Virus record (IMG/VR): IMGVR_UViG_3300044641_000792 | Location: 1-58,442 of that record | Length of the DNA: 58,442 nt | Direction: 5' to 3' (one strand) | From: a virus | Taxonomy: Duplodnaviria > Caudoviricetes | Part shown: positions 3,158-34,018 of the stretch, in pieces | Layout: each line of letters starts with the position of its first letter | Position numbering within the stretch: position 1 is the first letter of the stretch | Made by a program: the position numbers and the translations under genes | The notes under the pieces: model-generated | The model's database searches: none | Seen by the model: the letters and a program-made list of their open reading frames with translations, nothing else | What the model was told of the DNA's origin: nothing

Positions 3158-3570
3158 TTTGAACTCCTAATAAGAGCCGCCGTAGCTGTATTGGCAGGCA
3201 TTGTGATGGTGAAATTTGTAGATGTTTTGTCAGACCCAAAGTCCAACACCGCAATAGATTTATTACCTTGCGTGACGTTATAGATCAAAGCACAACGAGC
3301 CGTAACGGATGCGTTAAACACCACATCAGCAAAGTCTACAAAAGCTGTATACCCGGAGGAATTAATGGTTACGCCTGTCAGCGTTACGCCACCCGCCACG
3401 TAGCCGCCACCGGTAACTTCTGCAGTTGTCGTGTAAACAGTTGTTTCTTCGTTTAAATTAGCATTGGCTGTGTATAGGGCGATCTTTAGCGTATTGGTCG
3501 CTAAGTTGTGAACGCCTGTGTATAGCTCTGTTTTAAAGCTAGTAGTCTGGGTTTGGAGAATGCTACTCAT
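3154..3570 (-). CDS. Tail/virion structural protein
   Basis: LKIALYT...EVTGGGYVAGG...ALIYNVT; paralog of 2462..2962. Confidence 0.6.
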   Translation of the reverse strand: MSSILQTQTTSFKTELYTGVHNLATNTLKIALYTANANLNEETTVYTTTAEVTGGGYVAGGVTLTGVTINSSGYTAFVDFADVVFNASVTARCALIYNVTQGNKSIAVLDFGSDKTSTNFTITMPANTATAALIRSSN

Positions 3571-4406
3571 GTGACCGCCACTCTATATTGACCATCACGA
3601 TAAGCATCAGCACGTTGCTTGCCATCTGACAAGTTTTTATACAGAGCAATAGCCTGGACGTAACGCTCTTGGGCCAGCTTAACCATATCCGCTTCACCTT
3701 TCATGTAGGTGTAAGCCTCACAGATAGTTCCATACAACAATACAGAATCAAAGTTATCACCTAGCCAAGTAGTTCCAGCAGTAACAATAGACTCAGGATA
3801 GTAGTTGTAGTGAAGCTCTGCGATGTATGCGGCACTTGGAGTAGGCCCAACAATGAACGTCAATTCATTTACATCATCTGACCGGGGGCCAAAGATTGCG
3901 TAGTGTTTGGGTTCACTGACCTGTGCAGACAAGGGATAAGCTTCACGGATGAAGTTAACGTCCTTGTTCAAGAGATACAAGTAATCACCTTGGAAGACAA
4001 TAGAGCCTGATACCGTACCGCTATTTGCAACAGTTAATGTGATTGTGGTTCCAGCAATGCTACGAACCTGTGCATTAGTGCCAATCCCTGTCCCAGTTGC
4101 CTGCTGGCCCACAGCAATACCTGTCGTACTAGCCACCACAATTGTTTTCTGCCCAGATGTTCCTGTAGCAGTTGTAGTGTTATACGGATATACGGCAAGG
4201 CTATATACCGACAGAAAGTCTGTCGGGCACTGGAGGTACTTATTACCAGTAGTTAATGCGCCCGTCACGTTCTTTCGCAAATTAGCAGGCTGCGCGGTGT
4301 TATAGATGCGCTGCTCCGCCTGACGAATAAACGTATTTATATTGTCAGTTGGGAAAGAGTTCTCGCAGTAATCGCTTACCTGCGTGACAAGCTCACTGTA
4401 GTTCAC
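3567..4406 (-). CDS. Head-tail adaptor / tail tubular protein A-like
   Basis: MNYSELVTQVSDY...FIRQAEQRIYN N-terminus and LLYGTICEAY C-terminal helix typical of podophage adaptors. Confidence 0.6.
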   Translation of the reverse strand: MNYSELVTQVSDYCENSFPTDNINTFIRQAEQRIYNTAQPANLRKNVTGALTTGNKYLQCPTDFLSVYSLAVYPYNTTTATGTSGQKTIVVASTTGIAVGQQATGTGIGTNAQVRSIAGTTITLTVANSGTVSGSIVFQGDYLYLLNKDVNFIREAYPLSAQVSEPKHYAIFGPRSDDVNELTFIVGPTPSAAYIAELHYNYYPESIVTAGTTWLGDNFDSVLLYGTICEAYTYMKGEADMVKLAQERYVQAIALYKNLSDGKQRADAYRDGQYRVAVT

Positions 4407-25361: not shown

Positions 25362-25665
25362 TCAAACCCGCAAATACCCGCGCACAATGAACGAGGCATT
25401 TCCTAATTCGCCTGAGTACGCACAGGCTATTGAGAGATGCGACACACACGCAGGATCAGGTCTGTTTGAATTCATCCTGCTCCTGATTATCCTAGCCGCG
25501 CTCGCCTTTTCTATTGCTTGGTGGCTATGAAATACCGCGTTAGGTTACAAAGAACCTACGAGTTTGAGCTGGAGCTGGACGCAGAATCTAAAGAGGAGAT
25601 AATGCGTTTAGTTCTAAGCACAGACGACACACCCGAAGCACACACTACTAGGATCGTGAGTATCA

Positions 25666-30566: not shown

Positions 30567-31199
30567 TCATGCGCTCTTCTCCTTTATGTCGTAAAACCAA
30601 TCCTCCCCAGCCGACCATTTTCGGGTGCCGTCTACTGTCCACAAAGTCTTTGCCGCTTGAAAGTCAGGGAACTTTGTCTCAGCAGGAATTAAACTTTGGT
30701 CGTACCACAGGCACCGATTGTTTGGCTGACAAGCAAACTGCCCGTTATCAAGGGCAATCCAATTAAAAGACTTGTGCTCCTCGGCTTGCTCAGTAAACCC
30801 AGTGTCCAAGTCCATACCTTCGGCGCAGAAGTCCACAGTAAACAGGTAACGACCAAAGTGCCACTCCCTGTCTTTACCCAAGAACTTCACGCCCAAATTA
30901 CGCAAGCCAATCTTTTCAATGATTGTGAAGCGGTAGCCCATGCAGTCCCAAAGCTGAAGCGTATCGACTGGCAGATCGCCATGCTCCTCTTGCCACACAT
31001 AGGCGTGGATAGGTAGCTTGTCGTACAACGCGCCATAAGCTGGGAGCAAAGACTCAATGCGGAACACTTGCCCGCGCAAAGCTTTTAAACTAACCCAAAC
31101 CGCAGGCTCCAACTCGCCATGACCCTTTTGAAAGTTGTAAAGAAACTCTTTACGAACAAAACATTTAAGGGGCGGTAGTGATGCCACGATGTAGCTCAT
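30567..31199 (-). CDS. Conserved phage hypothetical protein
   Basis: GALYDKLPIHA, LQLWDC, YLFTVD, EHKSFN, NGQFACQPNNR. Confidence 0.7.
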   Translation of the reverse strand: MSYIVASLPPLKCFVRKEFLYNFQKGHGELEPAVWVSLKALRGQVFRIESLLPAYGALYDKLPIHAYVWQEEHGDLPVDTLQLWDCMGYRFTIIEKIGLRNLGVKFLGKDREWHFGRYLFTVDFCAEGMDLDTGFTEQAEEHKSFNWIALDNGQFACQPNNRCLWYDQSLIPAETKFPDFQAAKTLWTVDGTRKWSAGEDWFYDIKEKSA

Positions 31200-31432
31200 G
31201 TGTTCTTCTCCTTAAGCTTGGCTTCACGCCACTTGCCAATAGATCCAAGATTCTTGTCGCATTGTTTGCAGATAGCATCACAAGCCATAGTTTCGTTAAC
31301 TCCACCATCGTGCTTGCATCTTGATTGCCTCCACGCTTGTCTTGCATAAACAACACCAACAACCAACAAGAAAGCGGCAAGTGCAATCAATCCAAACACA
31401 TCGCCAAAAGTAATTACAAATACAGGGGTCAT
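31196..31432 (-). CDS. Small membrane protein with Cys cluster
   Basis: TM segment plus CKH...CKQC. Confidence 0.5.
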   Translation of the reverse strand: MTPVFVITFGDVFGLIALAAFLLVVGVVYARQAWRQSRCKHDGGVNETMACDAICKQCDKNLGSIGKWREAKLKEKNT

Positions 31433-31592
31433 GTGTTCTTCTCCTTGAGCGCCCTTTGAATCACCCTAGCAAACGCTATCTCACGCTCGCTTCTGCCACC
31501 TTCTGCGTAAAACCCGTTGAGCAGTTCTAATATCTCGTTACGCGTTAGGTCAACCCAAGGGCGAACGTAGTCTTGGATGTCATCGTCATCAG

Positions 31593-31820
31593 TCATGCTT
31601 GTCCCCTTGCTCGGATGTCGTTCACAATTTCAAATGCCCATACTGGTGACGTATATTGATAAGCCTCGTTTAAAACAATCTTTGCACACGCCTCACGCTC
31701 ATGCTCAATGGCTAAGTTGACCAATGCAACCAAGTGCGGGGTTGATACAGTCCACGTCGTGTAGTGCTTGTTCTCTTGCACCACTTTGTGTAGTGCATCT
31801 AGGATTTCATCTTGTGTCAT
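31593..31820 (-). CDS. Hypothetical protein (EREACAK...IRARG family)
   Basis: Common phage motif. Confidence 0.6.
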   Translation of the reverse strand: MTQDEILDALHKVVQENKHYTTWTVSTPHLVALVNLAIEHEREACAKIVLNEAYQYTSPVWAFEIVNDIRARGQA

Positions 31821-32164
31821 CGCCCCTCCTTTTGTAGATTAGTGTGCCATTATACACTAAATCACAGCTAAGTACAGAGAAGTTCAATAGTACTTACCCG
31901 TAGCCTGTAAAAAGGCATAGGTTCCCCAAGGGTGAGAAGCTCTCTCCCTCTCCCAGCGAAGCTCACTTGGGGCTTGCCTAGAGTACGCAGAACGTAGCGA
32001 TTCGTCGATAGAGGTCTTGTCTCACCATGTCCCTCTATCTTGCCCAGTCCCTCGCTAACAGGCTGGACGGCGTTTCCTGGGGGTGTAGCCAGTGCCGGTG
32101 TTCTCTTCCGCGCCACCCATGCAGGTGCTTGATACGTTCGGAGTACGGCTGTCGAGGGAGGAGA

Positions 32165-32255
32165 AACTAAGTCGGCTCACATAAAGCAGTGTAGCTTTTG
32201 CATTTCGTCTGACTTTAAAATCTGCGGAGGCGCTAACCCACCGCCCGACCTAGTT
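32165..32255 (-). ncRNA. Structured ncRNA unit B (GTTAGCG-loop / TGCTTTAT-loop scaffold, 31-nt variable insert)
   Basis: 11-bp closing stem and two hairpins; paralog of 32426..32509. Confidence 0.6.
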
Positions 32256-32263
32256 CCTGAAAC

Positions 32264-32354
32264 AAAAAAGCCACTTACAACTGCCCCGTCGAAGTTCCCC
32301 TAAACGGGGCGAGGCATGTGTAAATGGCTTTAGAGTGTTGACTTCGACGACAAC
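32264..32354 (-). ncRNA. Attenuator-like leader: hairpin plus long terminator stem with 9-nt loop complementarity (c4/a1b1-like)
   Basis: AAAGCCATTTACA...TGTAAGTGGCTTTTTTG stem; CGTCGAAGT/ACTTCGACG pairing. Confidence 0.55.
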
Positions 32355-32360
32355 GAGCGG

Positions 32361-32389
32361 AATATACCAAACGCTAATAGGCTTGTCAA
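32361..32389 (-). promoter_or_regulatory. Sigma70 promoter TTGACA-N17-TATATT
   Basis: Near-consensus; faces the replication operon. Confidence 0.8.
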
Positions 32390-32425
32390 GAGGTTTCAAA
32401 TACGACACGGTGTCGCTTTTGAAGA

Positions 32426-32509
32426 TGTTGGTGGGCACATGAAGCAGTGTTTGTGTAAAAACCGAACTAAGGAAAAATACAAGCGGCGCTAACCCGCTTA
32501 CCACCAACA
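32426..32509 (-). ncRNA. Structured ncRNA unit A (same scaffold as unit B, 30-nt variable insert)
   Basis: 9-bp closing stem TGTTGGTGG/CCACCAACA; AAGCGG-GTTAGCG-CCGCTT; CAC-TGCTTCAT-GTG. Confidence 0.6.
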
Positions 32510-32618
32510 CGACTGGAGACTGTAGCCAGAGAGCAGGCGTTCACACTCTTAACCTGACTGGCATTCGCTGAATATAATCAACGGGCCTGTGCCTCAATCC
32601 CCATGCGTGATGCCTCTG

Positions 32619-32647
32619 AAAAAAGTGGCCCCAGTTACGGAGCCACT
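32619..32647 (-). terminator. Intrinsic terminator of a putative antisense sRNA
   Basis: AGTGGCTCC-GTAACT-GGGGCCACT followed by a T-tract. Confidence 0.7.
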
Positions 32648-32701
32648 AAAACCAATCAAAGGAAACAAGCAACTTACAACCCAGCCCTCTGGCATGCCTC
32701 A

Positions 32702-32730
32702 ATACTAACCACAATTTTCTAGGATTTCAA
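32702..32730 (-). promoter_or_regulatory. Sigma70-like promoter TTGAAA-N17-TAGTAT
   Basis: Lies in the 3' end of the VRR-NUC gene, upstream of the ncRNA cluster. Confidence 0.55.
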
Positions 32731-32992
32731 GAGCCTCTTCAGGAGAATTTACAACCACGCACAAGCCACCCTCCCACTCATTGAAGAACTTCTGCTCCGC
32801 CTCGGTCAGCTTCCTCGCAGACGGAACCTTGCCCCCGTCCTTAACTTCCATCAGGATCGTGAACCCCCTGTACCCAACCAAGAGATCAGGTATTCCATCC
32901 CCCTGAGAGATGATTCGCACGACCGCGCCCACCTTACGCATGGCATCTACGATCTGGTTCTGGTTCGCATCTATTCTGTTGGCGTATCTCAT
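32705..32992 (-). CDS. VRR-NUC / PD-(D/E)XK nuclease (resolvase-like)
   Basis: GIPDLLVGYRG...MEVKDG...LTEAEQKF. Confidence 0.75.
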   Translation of the reverse strand: MRYANRIDANQNQIVDAMRKVGAVVRIISQGDGIPDLLVGYRGFTILMEVKDGGKVPSARKLTEAEQKFFNEWEGGLCVVVNSPEEALEILENCG

Positions 32993-33029
32993 AAAGCTCC
33001 TGTCTGATACAAATATTTTATCATACCTG

Positions 33030-33057
33030 TTGCAAGTTACAATGTATCAGGTATAAT
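33030..33057 (+). promoter_or_regulatory. Sigma70 promoter TTGCAA-N16-TATAAT driving the repeat array and RAMP operon
   Basis: Perfect -10 at 33052..33057; predicted TSS ~33063. Confidence 0.75.
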
Positions 33058-33084
33058 CGGCACCAACCTAACTGGTTTTGATAC

Positions 33085-33433
33085 GGCGCGGTTCGGCTGG
33101 GTAACGTTCGGCTGGGTATGGCAGAGCAAGGACTGGTCTGGCATGGTTCGGCGTGGGAGGGCAAGGGCTGACAACAGCCGATTGAGCATTCTAAAGAGTG
33201 TTCCTTCGAGTGTGAGGCAAGGAAGGGAGCGGCGGGGATGGGCAGGGTCGGGCACGGAAAGGTGCGGCACGGAACTAGAAATAGTCGATAGGGTATTGGC
33301 AACAGTACCACTTCGAGTGTTATGGCATGACGAGGAGAGGCATGGAAAGGTCAGGTCAGGCGGGGACAGGCAAGGGCTAATGTAGCGGCTATCAGATTGG
33401 CAACAGTCTTATGGTCGATGCAAAGTGTGCATC
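33085..33433 (+). ncRNA. Array of three GG(Y/A)NN pentamer-repeat RNA units separated by conserved hairpins (candidate guide RNAs)
   Basis: Tracts 33085..33169 (17 pentamers), 33216..33275 (12) and 33324..33378 (11); 37 of 40 begin with GG; each tract is followed by two hairpins; shared linker CTTCGAGTGT. Confidence 0.8.
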
Positions 33434-33448
33434 AATCAAAGGAAAAAA

Positions 33449-34018
33449 ATGAAATCTATTAAAGTAAAAATCGCAGGATCATCCCCTCTTCTCATGCACT
33501 CTGATCGCTTTGCGAACCCGTTAGACCCACTAACCAAGGCTCACAAAGAGATGACTGGCAAGCGCAAGAAAACTGACGATGACTTTATCGCCATTGCCAA
33601 GAGTGAATTTATTGGTGGCTGTTACTGGAACGAAGACACCGGCTTCTTTATTCCTTCACAGAACCTGGACTCATGCCTGATCGCGGCGGCTAAGCTTCAG
33701 AAGCTTGGCGTTAAATTCAAGCAAGGCATAGTGGTATTAGAAGACGAGCTACCCCTAGACGGTTTTAAAAACATGACACCAGAGAAGCTTTGGGAAAACC
33801 CAAAGAACGTCGATGCCCGTGGCGTGAAGGTCGGCATGGCTAAGATCATGCGCTACCGACCCATCTTCCGCAATTGGTCACTGTCTGCCACGGTGATGGT
33901 GAATGAAGACGTAGTTAACCTCAATGAAGTTAAAAAGGCTATGGTTGATGCCGGTGATTTGATTGGCTTGGGTGACTACCGCCCCCGCTTTGGCCGTTTC
34001 AAGGTTGAGTTTGCATGA
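33449..34018 (+). CDS. Stand-alone Cas7/RAMP-like RNA-binding protein
   Basis: N-terminal IKVKIAGSSPLLMH, FFIPSQNLDSCL, RYRPIFRNWSL and C-terminal Gly-rich loop GDLIGLGDYRPRFGRFKV; AAAGGA RBS before ATG at 33449. Confidence 0.75.
   Translation: MKSIKVKIAGSSPLLMHSDRFANPLDPLTKAHKEMTGKRKKTDDDFIAIAKSEFIGGCYWNEDTGFFIPSQNLDSCLIAAAKLQKLGVKFKQGIVVLEDELPLDGFKNMTPEKLWENPKNVDARGVKVGMAKIMRYRPIFRNWSLSATVMVNEDVVNLNEVKKAMVDAGDLIGLGDYRPRFGRFKVEFA

Follow-up and report, generated by a model that had tools for sequence, protein, structure and literature searches.

A widespread family of covarying phage RNAs with a variable middle segment, represented by two units in an early-region non-coding island of an uncultured tailed phage

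The IMG/VR virus record IMGVR_UViG_3300044641_000792, which was analyzed over its full length of 58,442 bases (here referred to as the window), is an estimated 93% complete genome of a tailed phage, with PHROG matches to large and small terminase, portal and head genes. Further PHROG matches identify a leftward block of early genes, with a helicase, a primase, a ParB-like protein and a methyltransferase, and, in a rightward block, a PD-(D/E)XK exonuclease together with an Erf-like annealing protein. The large terminase is 53-56% identical to those of the nearest cultured phages, 023Pt_psg01, DSL-LC04 and Pelagibacter phage HTVC027P. An 870-nucleotide (nt) stretch without credible genes (31,830-32,700) opens the leftward block and contains two paralogous elements on the minus strand, unit A (32426..32509, 84 nt) and unit B (32165..32255, 91 nt). 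We show that both units are members of a widespread phage-encoded structured RNA family, which is read from the minus strand of the window.

In unit A, the end-to-end helix P1 (TGTTGGTGG/CCACCAACA) is formed by the 5' strand UGUUGGUGG at positions 32501..32509, which pairs with positions 32426-32434 (CCACCAACA). It encloses the hairpin P2, AAGCGG[GUUAGCG]CCGCUU (32481..32499; AAGCGG[GTTAGCG]CCGCTT in DNA letters), a variable segment of 30 nt with UUCCUUAGUUCGGUUUUUACA (32451..32480), which is kept in A-type orthologs, and the mini-hairpin P4, CAC[UGCUUCAU]GUG (32436..32449; CAC[TGCTTCAT]GTG in DNA letters). In unit B, P1 (AACTAGGTCGG/CCGACTTAGTT, one G-T pair included) joins positions 32245-32255 to positions 32165-32175, P2 (32224-32244) reads GCGGTGG[GTTAGCG]CCTCCGC with one T-T mismatch, the insert (32193-32223) is 31 nt long, and P4 (32178-32191) is CAC[TGCTTTAT]GTG. 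Both units lie on the minus strand with exactly the coordinates and sequences that were given in an earlier reading of this DNA (the original prediction), and the anti-Shine-Dalgarno-like word TTTTCCTT that was pointed out there in the insert of unit A is present. Two longer words, the 11-mer GGGTTAGCGCC and the 15-mer ACACTGCTTYATGTG, occur without mismatches only at units A and B in the 58,442 bases. Single-sequence folding gives the drawn structure, with z = -1.92 for unit A (9 of 200 shuffles as good) and z = -2.91 for unit B (1 of 200), and the opposite strand of unit A folds about equally well (z = -2.76). Because the z-scores are weak and both strands of unit A fold about equally well, folding alone decides nothing, and the comparative support is decisive.

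Relatives were fetched with a pattern consisting of GGTTAGCG, 28-55 nt and CACTGCTTYATGTG, for which an exact match was required. The two-motif pattern matches at least 120 stretches in IMG/VR. In bacterial genomes, with one genome per species, it matches 12 stretches, mostly from Burkholderiales, all of which were confirmed by the covariance model at 42 bits or more. The named bacterial carriers include Variovorax paradoxus, Curvibacter, Achromobacter dolens, Undibacterium and Burkholderiales metagenome-assembled genomes (MAGs), and cultured carriers are Variovorax paradoxus NBRC 15149, whose chromosome 2 has three copies, Curvibacter sp. CHRR-16 and Undibacterium sp. Rencai35W. The family is distributed over uncultured aquatic (freshwater) phages and a few Burkholderiales genomes. 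Its occurrence in bacterial genomes is sporadic, with 1-3 copies in each of four carrier genomes; in one bacterial family, 4 of 151 genomes match at E<=0.001, two of them strongly, and the motif was not found in the rest of the genomes searched. Among the genome matches, three loci, cited here and below by their L numbers (L123, L125, L126), contain an identical unit-bearing sequence beside lambda-type terminase and portal genes, and are filed under the unrelated taxa Aeriscardovia MAG, Vreelandella rituensis and Clostridia MAG. This identity suggests a shared prophage or assembly contamination, and the three loci were treated as a single prophage or contaminant.

In total, 126 pattern instances were extracted, of which 117 distinct instances with full flanks were aligned. 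A filter of at least 7 pairs in P1 and at least 5 pairs in P2 was passed by 84 of the 117, and 59 of these were combined with the two window units in a seed alignment of 61 sequences. By an ungapped count, at least 7 contiguous P1 pairs are found in 102 of the 117 instances, with the other 15, including unit B, falling below this number through a mismatch or bulge. RNAalifold recovered P2 and P4 from the 117 distinct instances. The covariance model built from the 61 sequences matched 108 copies in 100 sources, and then 38 copies in 33 further sources (the 12 genome stretches included). In the window it finds only unit A (70.0 bits, E = 1.2e-21, across the full model, 1-84) and unit B (62.7 bits, E = 4.4e-19), with the next best of the 15 listed matches at 12.2 bits and E = 0.12.

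The helices P1 and P2 covary strongly. In the 101 distinct rows of the first match set, an alignment that is itself fitted to the covariance model, 94.1% of the cells pair, as compared to 67.7 ± 0.7% in a shuffled control, where 0 of 500 shuffles reach 94.1%, and to 26.9-42.0% when the partners were slid by 1-3 columns. In these rows, 15 of the 18 modelled pairs are altered on both sides, including 8 of 8 in P1, where 95.1% of the cells pair, and 6 of 7 in P2. For P4, three compensatory variants were found in copies outside the exact-pattern selection, CGC/GCG in L084 and CCC/GGG in L120 and L129. P1 varies in length from 8 to 16 pairs across the units, again with strong covariation, and 154 of its 1257 pairs are G-U or U-G. 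Since these would be mismatches on the other strand, the RNA strand is the minus strand of the window. The unit plan that emerges is an RNA of approximately 75-100 nt with the end-to-end helix P1, the P2 hairpin with the heptaloop GUUAGCG, the variable segment, and the three-pair P4 with the loop UGCUUYAU. The frame forms a closed three- or four-way junction, with a cloverleaf-like outline in one subclass whose insert folds into a hairpin of its own. Copies that were found by the model alone vary in their loops, with UUUAGCU and GCUAGCG in P2 and UGCUACAU in P4, and all of them retain AGC in P2 and GCU in P4. This retention fits a loop-loop contact as judged from the sequences, and it is no test of one.

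The original prediction was that these are RNAs on the minus strand in which a constant scaffold presents a variable insert. The covariation and the G-U pairs confirm the strand, the scaffold and its variable middle segment recur across the family, and with a covariance model built, relatives found and helices that covary, the two units represent a family rather than a chance pair.

The absence of a known Rfam counterpart, on which the novelty of the prediction depended, also holds for the window and for the loci of relatives. Rfam 15, which comprises 4227 models including C4, ribozymes, riboswitches, Y RNA-like, GOLLD and ROOL, gave no match at the gathering threshold in the window or in 14 loci (124,690 bases). 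At E values up to 10, a search of positions 31800-33450 yielded two chance-level matches away from the units and none to the tRNA model, and a search of four loci at E up to 1 yielded no match. No blastn match was obtained for positions 31800-33100 against phages or against E. coli genomes, nor for the unit region of L022, while positions 32160-32515 gave eight chance-level matches to phages, the best with E = 0.3. A literature search by sequence words of the motif, which did not cover the supplementary motif lists of PMC10690425, found nothing relevant among the papers listed. The latter study, a survey of IMG/VR by Fremin et al. (2023), reports 8,495 structured RNA candidates from DNA viruses, derived from the same data source and from the same kind of evidence, namely intergenic conservation with covariation (PMC10690425). 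Its abstract and text passages name no Burkholderia-linked or comparable motif (PMC10690425), and the unit family may be among the unnamed candidates. Whatever its function may be, the family ranks among the better supported of the new RNA motifs in bacteria and phages, with at least 120 contigs, very strong covariation and no entry in Rfam, and its cultured carriers make direct testing possible.

The middle segment is 19-43 nt long and is either single-stranded or forms a hairpin of its own. Its lengths occur in all three frames, and the region is therefore not coding. The segments fall into classes: the A type contains UUCCUUAGUUCGGUUUUUACA, the B type a mini-hairpin and GGACGAAAUGCUAAAGC, a further class has a hairpin with the loop UGUGCAAAUAC, and others carry CCUCCUAA... 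or ...AUGUUUUGAAAC. The A-type core UUCGGUUUUUACA is present in 8 of the 9 listed A-type units, across loci with differing flanks. With such classes kept among orthologs, the segment is not freely programmable in the way of a spacer. A CRISPR-like guide array was also considered and rejected, as perfect complementarity in the own locus extends over at most 7-13 nt, the same as for foreign loci, and as the window contains only two copies, 256 nt apart and with other elements between them, instead of a regular array. The words CUCC, UCCU or CCUC, which mostly start 5-14 nt after P2, were identified in 57 of the 123 distinct segments, as compared to 17.4 ± 3.7 in shuffled segments (maximum 30 in 500 shuffles), and the anti-Shine-Dalgarno-like character noted for unit A is thus enriched across the family. 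From these sequence patterns, we count the conservation of the A type and the enrichment of anti-Shine-Dalgarno-like words in favor of a segment that would be functional and not a neutral linker.

Our best reading, to which we assign a probability of roughly 40%, is that the units are C4-like antisense regulators built on a frame that is recognized by the host. C4 of phages P1 and P7 is described as an RNA of approximately 77 nt with three stems that is excised by RNase P, in which the b' loop occludes the ribosome site and the variable a' loop sets the specificity, and the motif has been predicted in Burkholderiales (PMC5320573). According to this description, C4 resembles the units in being phage-encoded, in having several stems with a terminal closing helix, and in combining a constant frame with variable specificity stretches; it is cut from a longer transcript, covers a ribosome-binding site and occurs in many diverged copies (PMC5320573). 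The unit family differs from C4 in that one variable segment is placed between two fixed-loop hairpins, instead of two variable loops. With the variable part placed differently and no match to an Rfam library that holds C4, the family is not counted here as a member of the C4 family. The CI RNA of phage P4 is related to C4.

Under the C4-like reading, the frame would serve as a stable, processable handle that is read by a conserved host factor, and it may be locked by a loop-loop contact of AGC(G) in P2 with (U)GCU in P4. The middle segment would be the specificity part, which pairs with purine-rich translation-initiation regions and thereby lowers translation, as C4 does. Unit A would act on a repeated start cassette of the leftward early genes, above all on that of a gene for a protein of 210 amino acids (aa) at 31199..30567, while unit B would be an optional 5' domain between two other RNA modules of the island, S and D. 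If this reading holds, the C4 principle of a structured phage RNA whose constant frame carries a specificity arm for ribosome-binding sites would have evolved a second time, independently, and in uncultured freshwater phages that are abundant.

The candidate target of unit A is the translation-start cassette of the 210-aa gene, AAGCCAAGCUUAAGGAGAAGAACACAUG (31197..31224, minus strand). When the unit A segment was paired with each of the 94 translation starts in the window, its best duplex was with this start, at -21.6 kcal/mol (mean -10.7, standard deviation 3.4), and none of 1000 draws of starts from other loci was as good. In a shuffle test, in which the duplex with the cassette has -21.2 kcal/mol, shuffling of the target flanks gave an equally good duplex in 9 of 500 cases, and shuffling of the seed in 0 of 500. 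The cassette, AAGCCAARCUYAAGGAGAAGAACACAUG, is found twice in the window (31197-31224 and 31430-31457), and 21 loci together contain 30 copies of it, with unrelated genes behind them; repeated cassettes of this kind could mark module boundaries or shared translational control. The A-type unit of L064 selects the same cassette, located before another gene, and an ortholog of the 210-aa gene was found in one other locus, L050. When tested against flank-shuffled targets in which the composition and the Shine-Dalgarno core were kept, the A-type units yielded p = 0.018 in the window, p = 0.054 in L064 and p = 0.086 in L087. A pairing of the unit A segment with the hairpin of the nearby terminator T2 was dropped, as it comprises just 6 pairs by eye. 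The proposal that the insert is an antisense or guide segment is thus met by a moderately significant match of unit A to one translation start and by no general signal in the own loci. Antisense action is plausible for unit A, to the extent that pairing predictions can tell, and unproven for the family in general, for which the targets may be in the host.

A number of observations weigh against an antisense function. The segments pair no better with translation starts in their own locus than with foreign starts (p<0.05 in 6 of 115 units, median p 0.52), there is no excess of perfect same-strand complements (p<=0.05 in 8 of 123, median 0.65), and with flank-shuffled cassettes p<=0.02 was obtained for 0 of 123 segments across the family, with p = 0.12 for unit A. 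Pairing between A-rich targets and U-rich segments does not depend on the order of the letters. For the A-type unit of L025 there is no match (p = 0.35 against flank-shuffled targets), and complementary target boxes beside the RNA gene, as in phage P1, were not found in the own-locus tests. Anti-Shine-Dalgarno-like words are no commoner in units near a gene start (23 of 44) than elsewhere (34 of 79). In 18 distinct loci of a helicase-associated class, the segment is the least conserved part, with a mean pairwise identity of 0.66 versus 0.86-0.90 for flanks and helices, and the near-constant start region next to a varying segment argues against simple pairing in cis. Since the loci were fetched with an exact pattern, part of the loop invariance is a product of the selection, and the fitted alignment has been mentioned above. 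Finally, a Shine-Dalgarno sequence and a start codon lie at most 50 nt downstream of the unit in 42 of 128 contexts, and a U run follows directly after P1 in 7 of the 128, which indicates that many units are leaders and not free small RNAs (sRNAs).

The units are found in three settings: at the 5' end of sigma-70 transcripts, in arrays with other structured modules, and after terminators. Directly 5' of P1, 22 of 103 distinct units have a promoter with at least 9 of 12 matches and a -10 box that ends 3-10 nt before P1, an arrangement found at 0.47% of 5150 random positions; the helix ...CAGUCCCCAGCCGU of another module, module 0, is located there in 19 of the 103, a terminator U run in 19, and none of the three in 43. 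Of the 128 contexts, 33 contain a -10 box with at least 5 of 6 matches at 3-10 nt before P1, and 18 of these also have a gene start within 50 nt downstream. On the 3' side, a CU-rich stretch as in the B type follows the unit in 14 contexts and the next module 0 in 10. The largest context class, with 36 of 133 loci, has the unit between an SNF2-type helicase gene (PF00176) and a gene for a 141-aa protein, starting at a consensus promoter, and no protein family encoded within approximately 5 kilobases (kb) of the unit is present in more than these 36 of the 133 loci. The layout of an sRNA gene was also observed: two copies from one Comamonadaceae genome (L141, L144) are each located directly before a GC hairpin and a U run, and in L131 the order is -10 box, unit, U run. 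In L025 (approximately 3350-3600), L097 and L130, a gene that looks glutaredoxin-like by eye from its translation starts 16 nt after an A-type unit, and the window has no such gene behind unit A.

The frequent position behind promoters is what would be expected if the units were leaders or handles that act in cis, with a frame that binds a host machine, such as RNA polymerase (as for put of phage HK022), an anti-Rho factor or an RNase or decay factor, and protects or licenses its own transcript, while the segment is a tolerated loop. We regard this explanation as possible rather than probable. It agrees with the lack of a phage protein partner, with a distribution that is restricted by host clade, and with the placement of unit A upstream of terminator T2. 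The put RNAs of HK022, putL and putR, are likewise described as two paralogs of approximately 70 nt just after early promoters, which act alone on RNA polymerase, and they resemble the units as paralogous structured RNAs of approximately 70-90 nt in the early region, near transcript 5' ends and without need of a phage protein (PMC9378689). The put RNA is, however, described as a V of two stem-loops without a closing helix (PMC9378689), and it has no variable middle segment, whereas P1 closes the units with 8-16 covarying pairs; the units do not share the architecture of put RNAs. Nor does the placement of terminators around the units call for put-like antitermination: both window units are downstream of terminators, with T1 before unit A and T2 directly before unit B, no strong minus-strand terminator follows unit B down to position 25,500, and in L022 the first strong terminator is located approximately 4.7 kb past the unit. 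The enrichment of anti-Shine-Dalgarno-like words and the conservation of the A-type segment, which are counted for the C4-like reading, are left unexplained by a leader in which the segment is neutral.

The location just past the transcription start in many loci, together with a helix P1 that carries two hairpins with potentially pairing loops (AGC with GCU by direct reading of the sequence), is also reminiscent of a ligand sensor in 5' leaders, similar to the purine riboswitch with its P1 and two hairpins with kissing loops. We consider this very improbable. The junction strands, where a binding pocket would be sought, are not conserved, with 0-1 nt in J1/2 and the variable segment in place of J2/4; other units lie behind terminators or within arrays, or are optionally inserted into a non-coding RNA; and no downstream gene class is consistent, the largest neighboring family being that of the 36 of 133 loci. 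Membership in a purine-like riboswitch family was rejected on the absence of a conserved junction pocket and of a consistent downstream gene class.

The remainder of the island is also rich in predicted RNA structure. In the 5' to 3' direction of the minus strand, the end of an open reading frame (ORF) of 95 aa is followed by a U/C-rich, seed-like stretch and terminator T1 (32672..32618), module 0 (32608..32510), unit A, a small hairpin, a promoter (32389..32361), the S module, which ends with terminator T2 and its U run (to 32261), unit B, a CU-rich linker, the D domain (approximately 32150..31905), and then the next promoter and the early genes. This module order recurs in the loci of the relatives L087, L015, L025 and L064. 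Two ORFs, 32250..32510 and 31868..32116, were rejected as genes, since they have no match in PHROG or Pfam and overlap covarying helices; the latter, which lies over the D domain, is probably not a gene. T1 (32618..32672, minus strand) is a hairpin of 10 pairs (32647..32624) with a U run, preceded by UUGUUUCCUUUGAUUGGUUUU. The U/C-rich stretch before it (32648-32672) is 76% identical to the segment of unit A (compared with 32458-32482); the layout is like that of an sRNA derived from a 3' untranslated region with a similar seed, and relatives have CUCCUUUG... at this place.

Module 0 (32510..32608, minus strand), directly 5' of unit A, is a hairpin of ACGCAUGGGGAUUG ... CAGUCUCCAGUCGU whose closing helix, ACGCAUGGGG.../...CCCCAGYCGU, encloses an internal loop and an interior that varies. 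In L010, L014 and L053 this helix encloses true units, and L025 has a compensated version of it, while in the arrays of L007, L021 and L024 module 0 alternates with units. Module 0 may be a processing site. In arrays, the other modules that take turns with units share the closing helix GUGUUGG/CCAACAC, and some of them have GGUUCGA-like loops (L021, L007). Such arrays raise the question of whether the units are tRNA-like punctuation marks or decoys, with P1 as an acceptor-like helix for RNase P or tRNA enzymes that marks cut sites in a polycistronic RNA or soaks up a tRNA-directed factor of the host. The closed junction and the cloverleaf outline of the hairpin-insert subclass are in line with this, a predicted odd tRNA adjoins the unit in L033, two tRNA genes are located approximately 650 nt from the unit in L032, and C4 is described as a substrate of RNase P (PMC5320573). 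Phage tRNAs and tRNA-like RNAs resemble the units in their closed multi-helix junction, acceptor-like helix, arrays and one differing arm. Their helix and loop sizes differ, however, from those of the units, which lack a CCA end: no CCA or discriminator is conserved after P1, and P4, with 3 pairs and a loop of 8 nt, is unlike a T arm. ARAGORN identified no tRNA or tmRNA gene in the window and tRNA genes in just 2 of 60 loci of relatives, and the tRNA model of Rfam (RF00005) gave no match near the units at E up to 10. We therefore reject membership among the tRNAs, with their 7-pair acceptor and D, anticodon and T arms, and think it unlikely that the units act as punctuation or decoys. The tRNA-like cloverleaf that was originally proposed is retained only as a closed junction, with a cloverleaf outline in one subclass.

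The promoter between units A and B is sigma-70-like, TTGACA-17-TATATT with TG before the -10 box (32361..32389, minus strand; 11 of 12 matches). The S module (32261..32354, minus strand) consists of a 5' hairpin followed by a long hairpin, an inverted repeat, with the U run of T2, and ends directly before unit B. It is kept in many loci, usually between the unit and D, with a near-consensus promoter at its 5' side and a GGA-containing loop in the 5' hairpin. Its make-up resembles that of a short RNA with a terminator, or of an attenuator. The D domain (31905..32150, minus strand) is a structured RNA of approximately 250 nt located 3' of unit B. It has homologs in L087, L091, L104 and L131 and partial ones in L060 and L085, no match in Rfam, and 21 of its 64 predicted pairs are altered on both sides in five sequences. 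Contigs from RNA libraries, from four runs in four studies, map to positions 31916-32192, and those of two runs continue into the 3' part of a B-type unit in a relative, a hint that B and D belong to a single RNA, with the limits that contigs cannot show ends and that DNA may have been carried over. No contig of the four runs covers positions 32208-32800, which include unit A, a result that is uninformative either way.

The S and D modules of L104, L131, L060 and L085 adjoin each other with no B unit between them, and unit B is thus an optional insert at this junction. The presence or absence of unit B at one and the same site is what would be seen if it were a mobile RNA or DNA module, and invariant loops with covarying stems, multiple copies and an intergenic location in phages are reminiscent of small self-cleaving ribozymes. 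We judge an explanation of either kind to be highly unlikely, given that no Rfam ribozyme model matches, that there is no conserved internal loop for a cleavage site, and that RNA-library contigs cross the 3' half of a B-type unit unbroken, the latter being weak evidence as it comes from contigs.

The C4-like reading can be extended to an RNA system with exchangeable arms in phages of aquatic Burkholderiales, in which a fixed fold would be read by a conserved host protein or RNase, and in which class-specific antisense arms, as imitations of the 16S rRNA 3' end, would shut down groups of translation starts in the phage or the host. The swapping of arms between near-identical phages would then be a determinant of specificity or immunity, with a function like that of C4 but invented independently, in a larger uncatalogued RNA island with S, D and module 0. 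We put this forward as a speculative and rather doubtful model. What the family is accompanied by, in either case, is three further conserved RNA modules in the 870-nt island and a repeated translation-start cassette.

The heptaloop GUUAGCG is also seen outside the units. The D domain has such a loop, with which a CGCUA stretch in the same domain could pair. In L143, from one of the 151 genomes scanned in the bacterial family mentioned above, the terminator hairpin behind a host tRNA gene has the loop (G)UUAGCG(C), and the heptaloop may be a more general stable or recognized loop in this host clade.

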